From NCBI GenBank assembly GCA_964291315.2, contig OZ219750.1, positions 512,001 through 576,000 on the forward strand: a stretch of 64,000 bases of DNA. The letters run 5' to 3'. Origin of the DNA: Candidatus Poribacteria bacterium. Lineage in GTDB: Bacteria; Poribacteria; WGA-4E; WGA-3G. The notes under the pieces are model-generated. The model ran no database searches, was not told the origin of the DNA, and saw only the letters and a list, made by a program, of their open reading frames with translations. Made by a program: the position numbers and the translations under genes. Positions 1 to 50,420 of the stretch are shown here, in pieces (within the stretch, counting starts at the first letter, position 1; every line of letters begins with the position of its first letter).

Positions 1-1772
1 CTCCCCTTCCACCTCCACCTCCACCAGCCGTTCCTGTAAGTATGGCCTTGATCCCTGCGGGCACCTTCCAGATGGGCAGCAGCAGTGGTGATACGGATGA
101 ACGCCCGGTTCACACTGTCTCTGTAGATGCGTTTCATATGGATACGCGTGAAGTGACGAACGCGGAATATGCGGCGTTTCTCAATGCGAAGGGGAAACAT
201 GCGGATGCGGGTCATACGTGGCTGTCTCTCGGTAGCAGTGATGTGCACATTGAGCTTATAGCGGGAGCGTATCGTGTGAAGTCGGGGTATGCGAATCATC
301 CTGTTGTTCGGGTGAGTTGGTATGGTGCGATGGCGTATGCTGCGTGGGTAGGCAAGCGCCTGCCGACCGAGGCGGAGTGGGAATATGCTGCTCGCGGCGG
401 ATTAGCAGGAAAACTTTATCCCTGGGGCGACACGGTAGACTCCAGTCGTGCGAACTATGGTGGGAACGTCGGTAGGACAACGGCGGGCGGTGCGTATGCG
501 GCGAACGGTTATGGTCTGTATGATATGGCGGGTAATGTCTGGGAGTGGTGTCTGGATGCGTATGATATGGAGTTCTATGCGGGGTCTGCCACTCAGAACC
601 CGTTATCGGGTGCGAGCAGTATCGAGTCGTTAGTAGCTGGTTATGTCTCGGTTGATTCGTATCGTGTGTTGCGGGGTGGTTCCTATATCTACTCGGCGCA
701 AGTTGTTCGGGTGTCGAATCGTGATCTTACTTTACCGATGAGTACGGGCGGTGATCTCGGTTTTCGGTGTGTGAAGTCAGTGCAGGCTGTGTCGGTTGCG
801 CCAACTCCGGTTTTAGCAGACCGATCGGGCGATACTGACGATAACGATAGGTCACACCCGTCTTTCAAAGGCTATGTTTATACCCCAGCGCCGTATCGAG
901 ACATGGGAAGTCCTGTTGCGGGTGTAACCGTCACGATCATATCAGGTGGTAGATCTGGGGAGTCGACTACGACCGACAAAACTGGTATGTACACGTTTCC
1001 TAATGTTGAAGGAAATTCCCTGCAGCTTCGTGTTGAAAAGGAAGGTTATGAGCCTAAAGAGGTGACCGTGTACCGATCCGGGCCTACCCGGCTTGCAAAC
1101 GGCGGGGTGCCAAACTTTGGTGTACCGAGAGGCTATCCTACGCACACAATGCAAAGAACGCCTGGTGTCATACTCATTGGGTTTAAGTGGTTAGAAGATG
1201 CTCGAAAGGTCTTGGCGAGAACTGAGGTGGTGTATGATCTGCTGTTGGTTAAAGACCCTGAATTTTCTAAGCCGAGTGGATGGACCGGATACTATTCAGG
1301 AGGGGTGGTAGCGGTCCCTGATGTCAGCAGAAAAGATGGTTTTTTCTTGTGGACCCTTGTGCATGAGATTGCTCATGCTAATCAGCATGGTCTGGTTGGG
1401 CTTGATGGTAGGGATAATTCTGCTGGGATAGGTTCCGTCTCAATTGAAAAGTACGAGCGGACTCCTCAAGGGCGAGAGTTTGTGCAAGCTTGGAAAACAG
1501 ATCTTAGGGAGTTTGGCAAGACAGCGTTGGATGCTAGATCGTACTATGCGAAAAGTTCAAAAGAGAATGCAGCGGAGATCTTCGCGTATTGGTGGAGTCT
1601 GGGGACGTGGTGGGAAGGCGGTGGTAGAAGGTACGGAGACCTTCAAGCGGGAGCTCCGAACAGGATGAAGTGGGCGAGAAAGTGGTTTCCTAGACCAGAC
1701 GCGCCGGAGCCTCCGGTGAAACCGAATATATCCATAGAGCATGTAGATCCTGTTCCTAGTACTACTTTGTAA
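1..1772 (+). CDS. 5'-truncated multidomain protein: Pro-rich linker, FGE-sulfatase (CLec-fold) domain, carboxypeptidase-regulatory-like beta-sandwich, zincin-like metallopeptidase domain
   Basis: Frame is open from the window start (PLPPPPPPAVPVSM), so ATG 42 is probably internal. FGE motifs IPAGTFQMGS, RLPTEAEWEYAARGG, YGLYDMAGNVWEW, RGGS, GFRC; then VAGVTVTI..TTTDKTGMYTF..VEKEGY; then HEIAH...ENAAEIFA. Confidence 0.85.
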   Translation, partial: PLPPPPPPAVPVSMALIPAGTFQMGSSSGDTDERPVHTVSVDAFHMDTREVTNAEYAAFLNAKGKHADAGHTWLSLGSSDVHIELIAGAYRVKSGYANHPVVRVSWYGAMAYAAWVGKRLPTEAEWEYAARGGLAGKLYPWGDTVDSSRANYGGNVGRTTAGGAYAANGYGLYDMAGNVWEWCLDAYDMEFYAGSATQNPLSGASSIESLVAGYVSVDSYRVLRGGSYIYSAQVVRVSNRDLTLPMSTGGDLGFRCVKSVQAVSVAPTPVLADRSGDTDDNDRSHPSFKGYVYTPAPYRDMGSPVAGVTVTIISGGRSGESTTTDKTGMYTFPNVEGNSLQLRVEKEGYEPKEVTVYRSGPTRLANGGVPNFGVPRGYPTHTMQRTPGVILIGFKWLEDARKVLARTEVVYDLLLVKDPEFSKPSGWTGYYSGGVVAVPDVSRKDGFFLWTLVHEIAHANQHGLVGLDGRDNSAGIGSVSIEKYERTPQGREFVQAWKTDLREFGKTALDARSYYAKSSKENAAEIFAYWWSLGTWWEGGGRRYGDLQAGAPNRMKWARKWFPRPDAPEPPVKPNISIEHVDPVPSTTL

Positions 1773-5230: not shown

Positions 5231-6376
5231 TTAATCACTTGCGGTGCTCTGTGCAGTTGAAGTCTGTGCATCACGGATTGCTTTACACAGATAGGTAATC
5301 CCTTCAGGAATATCATCTACGTGACAGTAAGCATACGCGAGTCGAATCGCTTTCACAGGTGCGCTCGCGTAATGGAAGGCACCACCGTTGGTGAAACCTA
5401 CGCCCTTTTCTGCGGCGAGTTCACGGAGTTTGTCTAGGTCTGTAGTCTCCGGTAAATCTATCCATAGGAAGAGTCCCCCCCGCGGACGGGTCCATGTGCA
5501 AATGTCGCTGACATGTTTGTTGAGGGTTTCTAGGACAGCGCGGCATTTCGCGCCAACGGCAGCGTTGGTCTTTACAAGATGTGTTTCGAGATGCTCCATG
5601 AAGAATTCCGCGACTATTGCGCTTGCCAGTGCACTCGTCCCGCCGTCCCAGCGGTTCTGATGGATTCGTCCGTAATACGGTTCCCGTGCCACGAAGTAGC
5701 CTTGTCGGATGCCTGCGCCTAATATCTTCGAGAAAGTGGCGATAAAAATTACACGGTTTGCTGTATCCAGCTTAAAAAGCGATGCCGGTGTCGGAGTAGA
5801 TGTAAAGTCAATATCACCGTAGCAGTCATCTTCAACAATGAGCGTATCGTATTCCTCTGCTAATTCCAACATCCGTTTTCGGCGTTCAAGCGAGAGGACT
5901 GCGCCCGTCGGGTTCTGGTGGTTCGAAGTTGTATAGATAAAAGAAGGGTGGATATTTTTCCGCTTGAGTACCTGTAGTTTTAATTCCAGATCATTCATAT
6001 CCATACCGTCGATATAGTCCATCGCTACGCCCTCGATGTTTGCTTTGAAATGCCGCATGATACCGAGGGTGCCGCTGTAGGTGTATTCTTCTGTTAGCAC
6101 GGTATCCCCAGGATCGATGAGCGTTCCGAGCACCAATTCTAATGCTTGCATAGAACCCGAGGTGATTGAAATGTTATCTATCGGCAGCGGGATTCCTTCA
6201 CGGCGTTCAAACCGCATAGATGCTAGCTCCCGTAAACCTCGATAGCCGGATTCGCCCGGATAATTAACCAGATTGCCTCCCAACTTACGGAGTGCCTTTT
6301 CGCTAGCCTCAATTAAATCTTTCGTTGGAAACGTGTACGGGTCCGGGCGCCCCCCGGTGAAAGCAAAGTCTTTCAT
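5231..6376 (-). CDS. PLP-dependent aminotransferase class I/II (MocR/LysN-like, no HTH)
   Basis: HQNPTG, IVEDDCY, TFSKILGAGIRQG. Confidence 0.9.
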   Translation of the reverse strand: MKDFAFTGGRPDPYTFPTKDLIEASEKALRKLGGNLVNYPGESGYRGLRELASMRFERREGIPLPIDNISITSGSMQALELVLGTLIDPGDTVLTEEYTYSGTLGIMRHFKANIEGVAMDYIDGMDMNDLELKLQVLKRKNIHPSFIYTTSNHQNPTGAVLSLERRKRMLELAEEYDTLIVEDDCYGDIDFTSTPTPASLFKLDTANRVIFIATFSKILGAGIRQGYFVAREPYYGRIHQNRWDGGTSALASAIVAEFFMEHLETHLVKTNAAVGAKCRAVLETLNKHVSDICTWTRPRGGLFLWIDLPETTDLDKLRELAAEKGVGFTNGGAFHYASAPVKAIRLAYAYCHVDDIPEGITYLCKAIRDAQTSTAQSTASD

Positions 6377-6702
6377 AGTATGCTGTTCCTTTGAACCTGA
6401 GTATTTCTATAAAAATCTCGGTTTGCATCTACCCAAATAGATGGAAAAATCTCAAGGTACAGGCGACACTCTTTATGAATATTCCACGCGCTGTTCAAGT
6501 CCTTGTCCATAAATTTAGGTACTGCTCCTTTTTTCAGCAGATACCAATGTATTGGACATAATTATAGCAGATTTATAAAAAAAAAACAATAAGGGAGATA
6601 CTCTATTTCTATGCTTCTATAGGACGCGAACGTTTCTTTTTTTTGACGCGGATTTTCATATTGTGTTATACTTAAGACACTTTTAATGCACTTTTATGAC
6701 AA

Positions 6703-9859: not shown

Positions 9860-10378
9860 ATGCAAGTGGAAATATCTGTCTTAGTGCTTAATGCGAGTTA
9901 TGAAGCCATCAACGTTTGCAACCTCCGGCGTGCGATGAAAATGGTTTTCAAGGGCACCGCACAAACGGAAGAAGTTTCTGGCCTTAAGATTCATTCACCA
10001 AGTGCTGCGATGAGAGTACCGCATGTAATTCGTTTGGTGAACTATGTTCATGTTCCGCGTAGTGTCGTCAAATTCTCACGTAGGAATGTCCTTGTTCGAG
10101 ACCGCTACACGTGCCAATACTGTTGCCGGGAATTTCCAACAGCACAGCTCACGCTTGATCATGTGGTACCGATCTCACGAGGGGGTCAGACGACTTGGGA
10201 AAATGTCGTGACTGCGTGCAAGAAATGTAATAACAAAAAAGGAAGTAAGATGCTCTATGAAACACAGCTCAAGCTCGTACGCCAGCCGAAAACGCCTTCA
10301 ATATTAACCTATTTACAACTCAACCGTCATTTTCGAGGCTGCCATCCGTCGTGGAGGAAATATCTCTATATCAACTGA
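9860..10378 (+). CDS. HNH endonuclease (McrA-like family)
   Basis: VLVLNASYE, RD..TCQYC, TLDHVVPISRGG..TWENVVTACKKCN..KG. Confidence 0.92.
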   Translation: MQVEISVLVLNASYEAINVCNLRRAMKMVFKGTAQTEEVSGLKIHSPSAAMRVPHVIRLVNYVHVPRSVVKFSRRNVLVRDRYTCQYCCREFPTAQLTLDHVVPISRGGQTTWENVVTACKKCNNKKGSKMLYETQLKLVRQPKTPSILTYLQLNRHFRGCHPSWRKYLYIN

Positions 10379-10381
10379 ATC

Positions 10382-10756
10382 ATGCAAGATCCGAAAAAAC
10401 TGAAGAAACGTTCGGGCTTCCAGCATGCCTATCGGACTGGTAGGAAGTATTGGAATCGTTACTTTGTAATATACGTACGGCAGACGAACTTTGAGCATTC
10501 TCGGTTGGGGATAACTGTGAGTAAAAAAGTCGGAAAGAGTGTCCAAAGGAATCGTGTTAAAAGATTAATTCGTGAGTCATTTCGGCACTTACGTCCTCAC
10601 ATACAGTTAGCTTATGACATCGTAGTTGTTGGTAGAGGTCCTGCGTCTCATCTTAAATGTCAGGATGCCCGACGCGCGCTCTATAGTTTGTTCCAGAGAG
10701 CTGCTATCTTCAATAACGATAGTAGAGTTAACCACAACGGAGTCGCACACAAATAG
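10382..10756 (+). CDS. rnpA: Ribonuclease P protein component
   Basis: [25 protein letters not shown]; synteny with yidD/yidC. Confidence 0.97.
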
Positions 10757-10767
10757 AGGAGTACCCG

Positions 10768-48397: not shown

Positions 48398-50293
48398 GTG
48401 AAAACGTATTTGACAAGCCTGAAACTTATGGTTGCCGCACTCGCTAGAAGAACAGTATTCGTTCTCTCTACGCTTGCTGCGCTGATCCTTGCAATCGCCC
48501 CGTTCGCGGCGGCCGAATGGCAAGAGAACATGGTAACCAATAACACGCTCGAAGAGATCTATGTGATCAAGAGCACCTGGCAGGCAGCAGATGATAACAG
48601 AAACATCCCCGTAGGGTTCCGGACCCGCGGCTCATACCAGCTTCCTCCCGGGAAGTCCAAAGTGTTCTATTCCTGGGACACTAACAGTATCTATTTCCGT
48701 ATTTCAAACGCAGATGGTGCGATAAAAGCGAACAGCGGCACGACGGCTTTTGCGTTCTGGGCTCATCCGGATCGCTCCTTCCGTGTTGTCTCACAGACGC
48801 TCGATGCCTCTGTGACAACGGATCAGCTGCTTTACTCTGATCGTTCGCCGGATCAGTTGGCTCAATTGGAGGGATTTGTCAGCTATACGGGCGGCTCCGA
48901 AGTGGTTGTGACTCCGGCGTGGGTATTGCTAGATGGACAGCCGACTGCTCCGCCAAATAACGAGCTCGGAAACGATGGTGGAGACGATGGTGGTCCGCCC
49001 GGTGGCGATGTTGCGCCGCCTGCGTGGGTAGCGAGCGTGATAACAAATGCCACGGAAGCCGACCTATATGTAGTCTACGCGACGTGGAAGCTGGAGAACC
49101 TGAAAAAAGGGTATCCTGAAGGGTTTCGGACGCGCGGCACCTATCGCATTCGTCCTGGGAAGGGGCGCGTGTTTCATGCCTGGGCGGATAACGAGATTTA
49201 TTTCCGGATTGCCAATGCTGCGGGAGCGTTAAAACCGGAGGCGAGTTCGGAGACGTTTGGGTTCTGGCTGCATCCGAGTCGTTCGTTTCGCTTGGTCTCG
49301 GATCAGGTTTCTGCGACAGTAGAGCAGTCGGGTCTGAGTTACTCGGATCGTTCGGTGTCGAAATTGGAGCGTTCGGATGGTTTTATGGTATATGAGAGTG
49401 GTTCTGACGTGACGGTGACTGCTGATTGGGTGCCGGTAGCTCCTGTAGATGCTGGGAATGACGGTAACGGGAATGCCGGTGACGATGTCGCTCCAGTACC
49501 GCCTGAAACGCCAGTGCCTCCGGTAAACCCGTCAGCTCCTGCGGGCATGGTGTTGATCCCCGCTGGCACCTTCCAGATGGGCAGCAACAGTGAAATCGAT
49601 GAACGCCCTGTTCATTCTGTGTCTTTAGATGCATTTTATATAGATACACACGAGGTGACGAACGCAGAATACGCAGCGTTCCTCAATGCGAAGGGCAGAC
49701 ACGCCGATGCGGGTCAGATATGGTTCGATATCGGGGATGTTCATGCGCACATTGAGTTAGTAGACGGTATGTATAGTGTGACGTCGGGGTATGCGAATTA
49801 TCCTGTTGTTGAGGTGAGTTGGTATGGCGCGATGGCATATGCTGCGTGGGCAGGCAAGCGGTTACCCACCGAGGCCGAGTGGGAATATGCCGCGAGCGGT
49901 GGTTTGGCCGGCAAGAAATATCCGTGGGGCAACACAATAAACCCCAACCGTGCCAACTACGCTGGGCATTTTGGCGGTATAACGGTAGTAGGTAAATATC
50001 GAGCGAATGGTTATGGTCTGTATGATGTCGCGGGGAATGTCTGGGAGTGGTGTCTGGATGAGTATAGAGGTGATTTTTATACCAGCTCGGCTGCCCATAA
50101 TCCGTTGTCAGGTGCTCCGAACATTAAGTGGCTGTTAGATAACTATACAGGAGTTAATTCATACCGCGTCGTGCGTGGCGGCTCCTGGCTCAATATAGCA
50201 CCGTTCGTGCGGGTCGCCAACCGCAACCTCAATACGCCTACGATCACGATCTTCAACATCGGTTTTCGTTGTGTGAAGTCTGTATCCCCTTGA
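48398..50293 (+). CDS. Secreted protein: two tandem ~135 aa domains (DUF1036-like) and a C-terminal FGE-sulfatase/CLec-fold domain; candidate DGR target
   Basis: AAGGAG SD before GTG 48398; signal peptide ending AAA; repeats TN.T...YV...TW....GFRTRG.Y...PGK; FGE motifs; no catalytic Cys after RGGS. Confidence 0.85.
   Translation: MKTYLTSLKLMVAALARRTVFVLSTLAALILAIAPFAAAEWQENMVTNNTLEEIYVIKSTWQAADDNRNIPVGFRTRGSYQLPPGKSKVFYSWDTNSIYFRISNADGAIKANSGTTAFAFWAHPDRSFRVVSQTLDASVTTDQLLYSDRSPDQLAQLEGFVSYTGGSEVVVTPAWVLLDGQPTAPPNNELGNDGGDDGGPPGGDVAPPAWVASVITNATEADLYVVYATWKLENLKKGYPEGFRTRGTYRIRPGKGRVFHAWADNEIYFRIANAAGALKPEASSETFGFWLHPSRSFRLVSDQVSATVEQSGLSYSDRSVSKLERSDGFMVYESGSDVTVTADWVPVAPVDAGNDGNGNAGDDVAPVPPETPVPPVNPSAPAGMVLIPAGTFQMGSNSEIDERPVHSVSLDAFYIDTHEVTNAEYAAFLNAKGRHADAGQIWFDIGDVHAHIELVDGMYSVTSGYANYPVVEVSWYGAMAYAAWAGKRLPTEAEWEYAASGGLAGKKYPWGNTINPNRANYAGHFGGITVVGKYRANGYGLYDVAGNVWEWCLDEYRGDFYTSSAAHNPLSGAPNIKWLLDNYTGVNSYRVVRGGSWLNIAPFVRVANRNLNTPTITIFNIGFRCVKSVSP
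50162..50275 (+). other. DGR variable-region-like segment
   Basis: Codons CTC AAT ATA GCA CCG TTC ... AAC CGC AAC CTC AAT ACG CCT ACG ATC ACG ATC TTC AAC ATC between RGGSW and GFRC, at the 3' end of the gene. Confidence 0.65.
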
Positions 50294-50420
50294 GGCTTTA
50301 CGCATTCACGAATTATGTTTCCGAATCTGTTACGCACACAGGTAGCGTTCAACGCTGTTATTCATTTCTCCTGGGGATTCGCAGTTTCCTGTCAGTTGAG
50401 ATGAGCTAAAGATACAATCC

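Follow-up and report, generated by a model that had tools for sequence, protein, structure and literature searches.

One gene in the window, by which we mean the whole 64-kb stretch of DNA analyzed here (C1:512001-576000 in a Candidatus Poribacteria genome), very probably ends in a variable region (VR) that was written in trans by the genome's own DGR: its last ~115 nt would encode the diversified end of a secreted or surface-exposed binding protein. As judged from the sequence, it is a genuine remote DGR target, situated on another contig than the template repeat (TR), with no less than about 120 kb between the two. This assignment follows from VR-TR differences that are adenine-specific and free of synonymous drift, together with the presence of the TR, Avd and a reverse transcriptase (RT) in the same genome. 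The gene is a clear but ordinary case of a known route by which bacteria vary binding proteins, and remote FGE-type targets of DGRs have already been published (in the passages of PMC5758913 on such targets). The features of the gene and of the DGR are listed in Table 1.

Table 1. Features of the target gene, of a paralog used for comparison and of the DGR on contig C3. Positions are those of the window unless a contig is given.
Feature	Position	Strand	Basis or details
Target gene, 631 aa	48398..50293	+	ORF list; exact product in protein collection; Pfam PF03781
Probable Sec-type signal peptide; n-region basic, core hydrophobic, AAA|EW	48398..48514	+	Read from translation only
N-terminal domain repeat 1, beta-sandwich, uncharacterised family	48518..48937	+	Repeat alignment; AF2 model
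N-terminal domain repeat 2	49025..49444	+	Repeat alignment
FGE-sulfatase / CLec-fold domain, non-catalytic type	49541..50278	+	PF03781; alignment to solved FGEs
Predicted VR, 115 nt homologous to TR	50164..50278	+	blastn, ungapped alignment
Span of the 13 adenine-site substitutions	50189..50259	+	VR-TR mismatch list
VR-side 3' flank, S V S P + stop, candidate IMH-side sequence	50279..50293	+	TR aligned with 12 VR-like 3' ends
Inverted repeat agcgt-tca-acgct	50344..50356	+	5-bp stem; indistinguishable from chance
Paralog for comparison, FGE domain + CarboxypepD_reg	3..1772	+	Pfam; not a DGR target
TR	C3:31732-31846	-	AAC-rich, non-coding, after C3 RT
RT	C3:31921-32979		352 aa; RVT_1 E=2e-21
Avd	C3:32976-33323		NF033474, 112 bits vs cut-off 80; PF22296 also matches

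Organization of the target gene and its product

The product translated from the GTG at 48398 is on record exactly, as a singleton cluster, in a collection of 15 billion proteins. Its domains follow in the order signal peptide, two N-terminal repeats, Pro/Gly/Asp-rich linkers and a C-terminal FGE-sulfatase domain that ends in the VR, and the protein is probably exported, to be secreted or exposed on the surface. The two-repeat structure that had been proposed in the initial annotation was recovered by alignment, the repeats being 46% identical (66/145, E=3e-48). An AF2 model of the N-terminal domain was obtained with a pLDDT of 92.7; no Pfam match to these domains was found even at E<=10 (3/3 domains scanned), and the comparison of the model with the PDB using Foldseek gave no match at E<=0.001 (best query-normalised TM 0.35). 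DUF1036, a lead from a language model alone (score 0.89) for the N-terminal repeats, was dropped owing to this silence of Pfam in all three domains.

The C-terminal domain matches PF03781 (FGE-sulfatase) over aa 382-627 with E=1.3e-66. Its best matches among solved structures are the catalytic FGEs (PDB 6muj, 2q17, 6s07 and 1y1e; E=5e-43 to 4e-37), with which it has PF03781 in common. Unlike these enzymes, the target lacks their cysteine segment: where solved FGEs have LCHDSYCNRYR or LCHESYCNRYR, it reads LNIAPF, three gap positions and then Val-Arg, so that both cysteines are missing and the segment is three residues shorter. The alignments to 6muj, 2q17 and 6s07 agree on the missing Cys pair and on the three-residue gap at this site. 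We take the Cys pair of LCHDSYC or LCHESYC to be the active-site, catalytic cysteines of the solved FGEs.

Codon pattern and comparison of the VR with the TR

The initial annotation had described a switch to C-ending codons close to the stop codon, mostly T- or G-ending codons at the same place in the paralog, and the end of the diversified segment a few codons ahead of the stop, and all three observations were borne out. C-ending codons make up 19/38 of the segment 50162-50275 as against 48/207 in the FGE part upstream (Fisher p=0.0013), and only 5/33 in the paralog's equivalent segment, 672-770 (p=0.0025 vs 50162-50275), in which 48% of the codons end in T and 30% in G. Homology to the TR stops at 50278; the four codons S V S P separate this point from the stop codon at 50291-50293. 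The paralog gave a blastn match of 25 nt only to the VR query.

A whole-genome blastn search for a copy of the segment, which had been suggested as a check, identified the TR, on the minus strand of contig C3 next to RT and Avd, as the partner of the VR. Within a 102-nt core (50172-50273), VR and TR differ at 13/32 A sites and at 1/70 non-A sites (Fisher p=4.2e-7), and over the whole 115 nt at 13/34 and 4/81, respectively (p=1.9e-5). The A-site changes are located at 50189, 50190, 50202, 50204, 50205, 50228, 50229, 50239, 50244, 50250, 50252, 50253 and 50259. The single non-A change in the core is a C>T at 50196; the remaining non-A changes (50170, 50171 and 50274) lie at the edges, outside the core, and those at 50170 and 50274 are also found in other VRs or paralogs. 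Arithmetic on the listed positions places 12/13 A-site changes at codon positions 1-2, and the remaining one, CCA>CCT, replaces a third-position A without altering the amino acid. Seven of the ten AAC codons are changed, all seven with the third-position C kept, and the non-A third codon positions are equal to the TR in 22/22 cases, as opposed to 11-16/22 in distant paralogs. Moreover, the VR core shares 98.6% of its non-A sites with the TR, whereas identity to the cassette target is only 68% over the 300 nt upstream, a step that we count in favor of rewriting by the DGR. The closest paralog of the target gene, located on C4, is 89% identical upstream, and we estimate that the VR was last rewritten long after the target gene had split from every paralog.

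The A-site changes of the target VR comprise 10 T, 3 C and 0 G, and the resulting residues are all hydrophobic. Among the 183 A-site changes of the ten other TR-matched 3' ends in the genome, 80 are G, and from that spectrum the chance of 0 G in 13 changes can be calculated as ~6e-4. The G-free, all-hydrophobic spectrum suggests an allele that was selected and became fixed.

The VR is therefore a near-repeat of the TR with its differences at TR adenines, apart from minor exceptions, and it is positioned at the 3' end of the ORF, in a CLec/FGE-fold domain, where AAC-type codons are changed at their positions 1-2. It agrees with what the passages of PMC5758913 on non-adjacent and remote targets require of such a region.

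DGR cassettes and the template repeat

Two cassettes of Avd and RT are present in the genome, on contigs C3 and C4, each with Avd before RT and with an FGE target that shares the N-terminal domain of the target protein. The VRs of these cassette targets are located at C3:33448-33562 and C4:494574-494690. These account for the only two RVT_1 matches in the whole genome; there is none on C1, and hence no RT in the window. The cassette is duplicated and the intact TR is single, the only TR-like non-coding copy being the one on C3, beside RT and Avd; on C4 there is an apparent TR/VR chimera. The start of the C3 RT overlaps the Avd stop. As expected of a DGR RT, the protein is small, carries RVT_1 with no maturase or fused domain, and is linked to Avd and TR; it does not reach the cut-off of any of the models for group II introns, retrons and Drt. 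It also contains the sequence IGNLTSQ, presumably a motif of diagnostic value for DGR RTs.

The claim that an AAC-rich template elsewhere acts in trans is thus matched by the TR beside Avd and RT on C3, and the 64-kb window itself contains neither template nor RT, as had been stated; the label "orphan", in consequence, is right for the window and wrong for the genome. The template predicted in the initial annotation agrees with the real TR in 75/77 letters by visual comparison (a 15-nt piece exactly, a 62-nt piece at 60/62), and its two misses are T's not reverted to A, at window positions 50239 and 50259. A DGR target could accordingly be recognized from nothing but its codon pattern, and nearly every letter of its template predicted from that same pattern.

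As TR and target VR are on separate contigs, their minimum distance, that for abutting C1 and C3, is 88,072 + 31,733 nt. The target belongs to no other DGR and is >100 kb from the RT, and it thereby counts as remote by the definition of Wu et al. The targets of the C3 and C4 cassettes differ from each other at 26/32 A sites, at 1/70 non-A sites and at one position in the 150 nt upstream. Such near-complete A-site difference next to near-identical upstream sequence indicates that the DGR was active recently, after the duplication of the cassette.

In the mechanism that we propose, which is established for DGRs in general, the TR on C3 would be transcribed, and the adjoining Avd/RT pair would make cDNA from it, misreading adenines. 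The cDNA would then replace the homologous 3' end of genes with a matching scaffold and 3' flank, the window gene being one recipient, on a separate contig. The rewriting event at the target VR is itself deduced from the letters of VR and TR.

The 3' flank and variability among strains

VR and TR diverge past 50278, and the tail that follows on the VR side is common to the cassette VRs. The hairpin agcgt-tca-acgct, pointed out in the initial annotation, does exist, but it was rejected as a recognition element because it is no better than shuffled sequence (-4.2 kcal/mol, z=-1.9, matched by 8/200 shuffles). In the cassette targets there is a hairpin with an 11-bp stem (z=-4.4 and -3.1), and a downstream GC-rich inverted repeat is not found at the target VR. 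Downstream inverted repeats were counted in only 127/372 DGRs (PMC5758913). Additionally, the VRs located inside multi-domain ORFs agree with the TR at 100% of the non-A sites and then run straight into linker coding sequence, so that, to judge from the letters of these flanks, a hairpin like that of the cassette targets seems dispensable.

Population data were taken from Logan contigs of two runs of one study, which possibly include the source sample, and in which rare variants are hidden. One contig per run crosses the VR. The contig of the first run (X1) is equal to the window at every listed VR position, with up to one further difference not listed. That of the second run (X2) represents a strain that shows 11 differences over 583 nt, at least eight of them outside the VR and up to two not listed; its sole listed VR difference, codon CCG>TAC at 50201-50203, is not confined to an A site. 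The present-day hypervariability anticipated in the initial annotation was therefore not observed: a single consensus VR is seen in the contigs of the two runs, and no hypervariability at TR-adenine positions is visible at this level. We estimate that the current VR allele is a selected, all-hydrophobic one that is stable across the sampled strains. Contig joints that skip from 50186-50189 to 50259-50260 were also noticed and set aside; their matching sides are 22-28 letters long, and these flanks are common to all TR-matched VRs and unassignable to the target gene.

No close ortholog was found in the genomes of 30 relatives (best DNA match 71%), in a genome contig collection (best full-length match 51% aa), in a metagenome contig collection (best match 55%, limited to the FGE part) or among the 15 billion proteins, where the target protein clusters alone.

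Two accounts of the present state of the VR have to be weighed. The somewhat stronger one, though we consider it unlikely, is that the DGR once wrote the VR but can no longer rewrite it, either because a recognition element was lost or because the only intact TR or its cassette is silent, and that the VR now follows ordinary coding evolution. The stability of the VR over three assemblies, the weakness of the hairpin, the one internal non-A change and the existence of graded 3' ends (93% to 68% non-A identity), as expected of decaying targets, are consistent with this account. Any loss must nevertheless have been very recent in view of the 98.6% non-A identity and of the 22/22 intact positions of the synonymous type, and the internal VRs described above suggest that the cassette-kind hairpin is dispensable.

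Slightly less likely again is a VR that is often rewritten in the present population, with minority variants concealed by consensus contigs. That the VR and the VRs next to the cassettes are equally close to the TR (1/70 non-A), that the VR is followed by the cassette-type 3' tail, that the DGR acted after the cassette duplication and that rare variants are dropped from contigs would all fit. Against this, the A-site pattern is unchanged in the window, X1 and X2 despite the eight or more non-VR differences of X2 in 583 nt, the sole listed VR difference is not adenine-specific, a strong inverted repeat downstream is absent, and the hydrophobic, G-free spectrum looks selected and fixed. Altogether, we put the chances that the target VR can still be rewritten at about even, and we doubt that it is diversified at an appreciable frequency now.

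Genome composition and the FGE-sulfatase family

The assembly is of the metagenome type, with four contigs and 3.49% contamination, and at least two strains are present in the runs. It could be supposed from this that C1 and the TR contig were binned together from different co-resident Poribacteria, in which case TR and VR would not be linked in one cell. We regard this as very improbable: contig GC is 46.6-48.1%, with 47.2% in both C1 and C3, and the C1-C3 tetranucleotide correlation is 0.994, so that the contigs are compositionally one genome, and moreover TR-matched remote VRs are located on C3 and C4 themselves and the closest paralog of the target gene is on C4.

In the genome, 11 TR-matched 3' ends, including that of the target gene, were identified on three contigs, with two or three TR-matched VRs within single ORFs. 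A further ~27 FGE 3' ends form a smooth gradient in their non-A match to the TR, between 93% and 68%, and distant paralogs differ from it at 16-25/32 A sites. The genome contains 65 FGE-sulfatase domains, and the Cys pair is absent in 44/44 of the C-terminal segments found among them by regular expression. The least likely explanation of all, namely that no retroelement is involved and that the VR resembles the TR through ordinary paralogy or through gene conversion within the set of 65 domains, the C-ending codons being a local bias and the adenine-bearing codons of the TR simply those that vary naturally in this fold (as the A-site differences of distant paralogs might suggest), can almost be dismissed, since gene conversion would carry the adenines over too, ordinary divergence would hit third positions (22/22 non-A thirds and 7/7 AAC C's equal the TR), and the matching sequence is a non-coding repeat right after an Avd-RT pair.

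Our preferred reading, a remote target written by the DGR of its own genome, can tentatively be extended to the family, although we hold the extension to be possible rather than probable. One intact template may serve, or have served, the whole family, and the expansion to 65 domains may represent a birth-and-death family of secreted binding proteins and not a sulfatase maturation machinery; the DGR would seed specificity, selection would fix it and the target would fossilise, with the window gene at a "fixed, hydrophobic-pocket" stage. Caution is advisable with the label "sulfatase-modifying factor" that many domains of this symbiont carry, as these are probably binding modules and not enzymes.

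Comparison with known DGRs

The present case adds a many-target cellular DGR in Candidatus Poribacteria. No paper describing DGRs in Poribacteria was found by full-text search; the supplementary tables of large DGR surveys, which lie outside such a search, may list some.

The prototype, the DGR of Bordetella phage BPP-1 (mtd-avd-TR-brt), resembles the one analyzed here in its combination of Avd, RT and TR, in adenine-specific differences and in having its VR where the gene for a CLec-fold protein ends on the 3' side (as outlined in the sections of PMC5758913 on this system). It is phage-borne and has a single adjacent target, whereas the DGR here is chromosomal and has 11 TR-matched 3' ends; BPP-1 also needs an inverted repeat downstream and has a GC-rich IMH, whereas here the VR-TR boundary is not GC-rich and no significant repeat follows the target gene of the window.

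In cyanobacteria (Trichodesmium, Nostoc and others), the DGR sections of PMC7517822 likewise describe CLec paralogs outside the cassette with TR-homologous 3' ends, in a family that mixes DGR-internal, remote and non-variable homologs. The remote proteins treated in those sections are mostly cytosolic signalling proteins, whereas the target here is predicted to start with a signal peptide and lacks signalling domains. With 1/70 non-A differences, its match to the TR is also far stricter than the 50% identity threshold given there.

The DGR of Treponema denticola also operates as one cellular DGR on scattered paralogous genes, TvpA and seven further remote targets according to the paragraphs of PMC5758913 on this species. 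TvpA, like the target, is described there as having an FGE-sulfatase/CLec fold without formylglycine-generating activity and a C-terminal VR, and its structure (PDB 2y3c) matches the FGE domain of the target with E=1.7e-17. Unlike the Treponema system, the one described here belongs to a poribacterial sponge symbiont, has Avd as its accessory gene and consists of a duplicated cassette with one intact TR. The target also differs from TvpA in carrying two copies of the uncharacterised N-terminal beta-sandwich domain.

The window gene and its codon pattern

The window gene encodes a putatively secreted protein of 631 aa, for which an exact match, forming a singleton cluster, is on record in the protein collection. 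Judged by eye, its N-terminus appears Sec-like, and alignment revealed two repeats of ~145 aa, 46% identical to each other, which are joined via Pro/Gly/Asp-rich linkers to an FGE-sulfatase domain at the C-terminus (aa 382-627; Pfam, E=1.3e-66). The gene is flanked by ordinary chromosomal genes. Every relative from the public genome collections carries the name Candidatus or uncultured Poribacteria, and most of them are MAGs from sponge metagenomes. Catalytic FGEs are the best solved relatives (E about 1e-42), and TvpA (2y3c) was matched at E=1.7e-17. The segment LCHDSYCNRYR of solved FGEs (LCHESYCNRYR in 6s07) is replaced by LNIAPF---VR in the window protein, and therefore both cysteines of the LCHDSYC segment, which we take to be the catalytic pair of FGE, are absent. 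The 4.4-Mb genome contains 65 matches to the FGE-sulfatase domain, six of them consecutive at C4:2727624-2733267; the cysteine pair was found in none of the 44 C-terminal segments, out of these 65 domains, that a regular expression caught.

The initial annotation had described a switch to C-ending codons at 50162-50275. Codon counts agree with this description: 19 of the 38 codons end in C, compared with 48/207 in the upstream FGE part (p=0.0013) and with 5/33 in the equivalent segment (672-770) of the window's other FGE gene (p=0.0025).

DGR cassettes and the template repeat

It had also been proposed that the gene is a diversity-generating retroelement (DGR) target, served in trans by an AAC-rich template located elsewhere, and that the window itself contains no reverse transcriptase (RT). 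Both proposals proved correct. The genome search detected exactly two RVT_1 matches, on contigs (C3:32128-32769, minus strand, and C4:495366-496007, plus strand) other than that of the window, which spans C1:512001-576000, and both belong to near-identical cassettes composed of an FGE target (463 or 462 aa), Avd (115 aa), RT (352 aa) and then a repeat. Avd was identified by NF033474 (112 bits vs a cut-off of 80) and also by PF22296; the RT matched RVT_1 alone and was under all group II intron, retron and Drt cut-offs. After the C3 RT lies an intact template repeat (TR), whose hypothetical translation is RGGSWNNTAQNVRVANRNNNTPTNTNNNNGFRCAK; compared by eye, the template predicted in the initial annotation equals it at 15/15 and 60/62 letters.

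In the C4 cassette, the TR slot (C4:496259-496400; about 6260-6401 in locus L004) is occupied by a chimera of TR and variable region (VR). Its 5' half matches the C3 TR exactly, and its VR-like 3' half, which differs from the TR at 13 A sites (TR adenine positions) only, extends into a 540-aa ORF with multiple FGE domains. The assembly therefore holds one intact TR, and the chimera represents either a TR x VR recombination or an assembly join. Between the two cassette targets, 26/32 A sites and 1/70 non-A sites differ, as does 1/150 nt immediately upstream, which places DGR action after the duplication of the cassette. Avd was present in two of the 31 genomes searched, this one and G011, the genome of a second species of the genus. 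The orthologous cassette of G011 (target, Avd, RT and TR; locus L174, G011:C403, 2339-7318) has a TR with 92% identity across 158 nt and a VR of its own with differences at 19/115 aligned positions.

Location of the features of the remote DGR target and its template
Feature	Location	Strand	Remark
Window gene	48398-50293	+	631 aa product; ORF list
N-terminal domain, about 145 aa	48518-48937; 49025-49444		window
N-terminal domain, about 145 aa	L003 (locus outside the window) 10320-10760	-
Intact TR, non-coding, AAC-rich	C3:31732-31846	-	after C3 RT; sequence comparison
Remote TR-matched end	C3:227107		about 195 kb from C3 RT
Remote TR-matched end	C4:776998		about 281 kb from C4 RT
Remote TR-matched end	window VR		on C1

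Comparison of the window VR with the TR

Over 115 aligned nucleotides, the window VR differs from the TR at 13/34 adenines and 4/81 other bases (p=1.9e-5), and within the 102-nt core (50172-50273) at 13/32 A sites and 1/70 non-A sites (p=4.2e-7). Three of the non-A mismatches lie at the edges (50170 and 50274, both common to other VRs or paralogs, and 50171), and the only internal one is 50196 (C>T). Seven of the ten AAC codons of the TR are changed, all seven keeping the third-position C, and the non-A third positions of the remaining codons equal the TR in 22/22 cases, compared with 11-16/22 in distant paralogs. The 300 nt upstream of the VR show only 68% identity to the cassette target, the best paralog reaching 89%.

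Gene conversion as the source of the window VR is ruled out by the adenine specificity of the differences. Ordinary divergence of paralogs, as the source of the likeness to the TR, is ruled out by the step in identity at the VR together with the lack of synonymous drift inside it. The window gene truly belongs among the remote targets of a cellular DGR, and the initial annotation was right in both its observation and its interpretation.

The gene adds to a known type, remote DGR targets having already been published. According to excerpts of one survey (PMC5758913), non-adjacent targets occur in 45/372 DGRs, 29 targets from 10 DGRs lie >100 kb away, and Treponema denticola has seven remote targets; one CLec target gene with three VRs is on record, non-A changes occur in 86/372 DGRs, and indels of 3 nt have been described as well. 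Excerpts of another report list 76 remote targets in cyanobacteria (PMC7517822).

Present state of the window VR

For a population comparison, contigs of two public runs from one study (X1 and X2) were used, one contig per run spanning the window VR. Over 583 nt, the X1 contig departs from the window at 3 positions, of which the two listed are upstream of the core. The X2 contig has 11 differences and one gap, at least 8 of these outside the VR, and thus the same A-site pattern is kept in a strain about 1.5% diverged. In X2 one VR codon is changed: at 50201-50203 X2 reads TAC and the window CCG; because the TR reads CAG there, this change is not confined to A sites, and adenine mutagenesis of the known TR does not explain it.

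The 13 A-site substitutions (50189-50259) comprise 10 T, 3 C and no G, compared with 80 G among 183 A-site changes in the other ten TR-matched ends; by our own arithmetic, the probability of no G in 13 changes is ~6e-4. As every changed codon encodes L, P, F or I (LNIAPF...NLNTPTITIFNI), the variable surface is wholly hydrophobic. From its residues, the window VR resembles a hydrophobic binding surface that has been selected and fixed, and we lean towards a fixed allele rather than one still diversifying.

Other TR-like ends and downstream hairpins

The scored set consisted of 38 TR-like 3' ends (blastn matches of at least 80 nt, the TR itself left out). In eleven, non-A identity to the TR is 95.7% or higher, and the remaining ends are graded from 93.9% down to 68.6%. 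Eight of the eleven are no more than about 6 kb from an RT (C4 chimera counted) and three are remote. Taken together, the non-A identities run without a break from 100% to 68.6%, as if old DGR targets were decaying into ordinary paralogs.

Two single ORFs of L004 (6293-7915 and 9770-11467) contain two or three FGE domains, each with a TR-matched VR at its end. Three TR-matched VRs, those of L003 5314-6177 and 6452-7321 (minus strand) and of the last domain of L004 6293-7915, contain an additional codon that the TR lacks. The VR peptides of the tandem L003 genes (287 and 289 aa) are identical, which implies no rewriting since their duplication, or assembly collapse.

The hairpin that had been reported at 50344-50356 exists, but it does not stand out from chance (z=-1.9; 8/200 shuffles fold equally well). 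In the cassette targets, a hairpin with an 11-bp stem follows the stop by about 35 nt (z=-4.4 and -3.1), and folding against shuffles found none of this quality in the downstream flank of the window gene. The internal VRs of the multi-domain ORFs, with 100% non-A identity to the TR, continue straight into linker coding sequence. Downstream repeats of this kind are present in only 127/372 DGRs, as excerpted from PMC5758913.

The N-terminal domain

The repeated N-terminal domain has no Pfam match. Its AF2 model is a confident beta-sandwich (pLDDT 92.7), with no match in the PDB at E<=0.001. Homologues amounted to 97 cluster representatives out of 1.84 billion; for most of these 97, the match begins near residue 20, usually directly after the signal peptide. 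In eight relatives scanned, the fusion partners were FGE (4), FlgD_ig (3), LRR (2), dockerin (2) and LDL-receptor class B (1), one of the eight being without any Pfam family.
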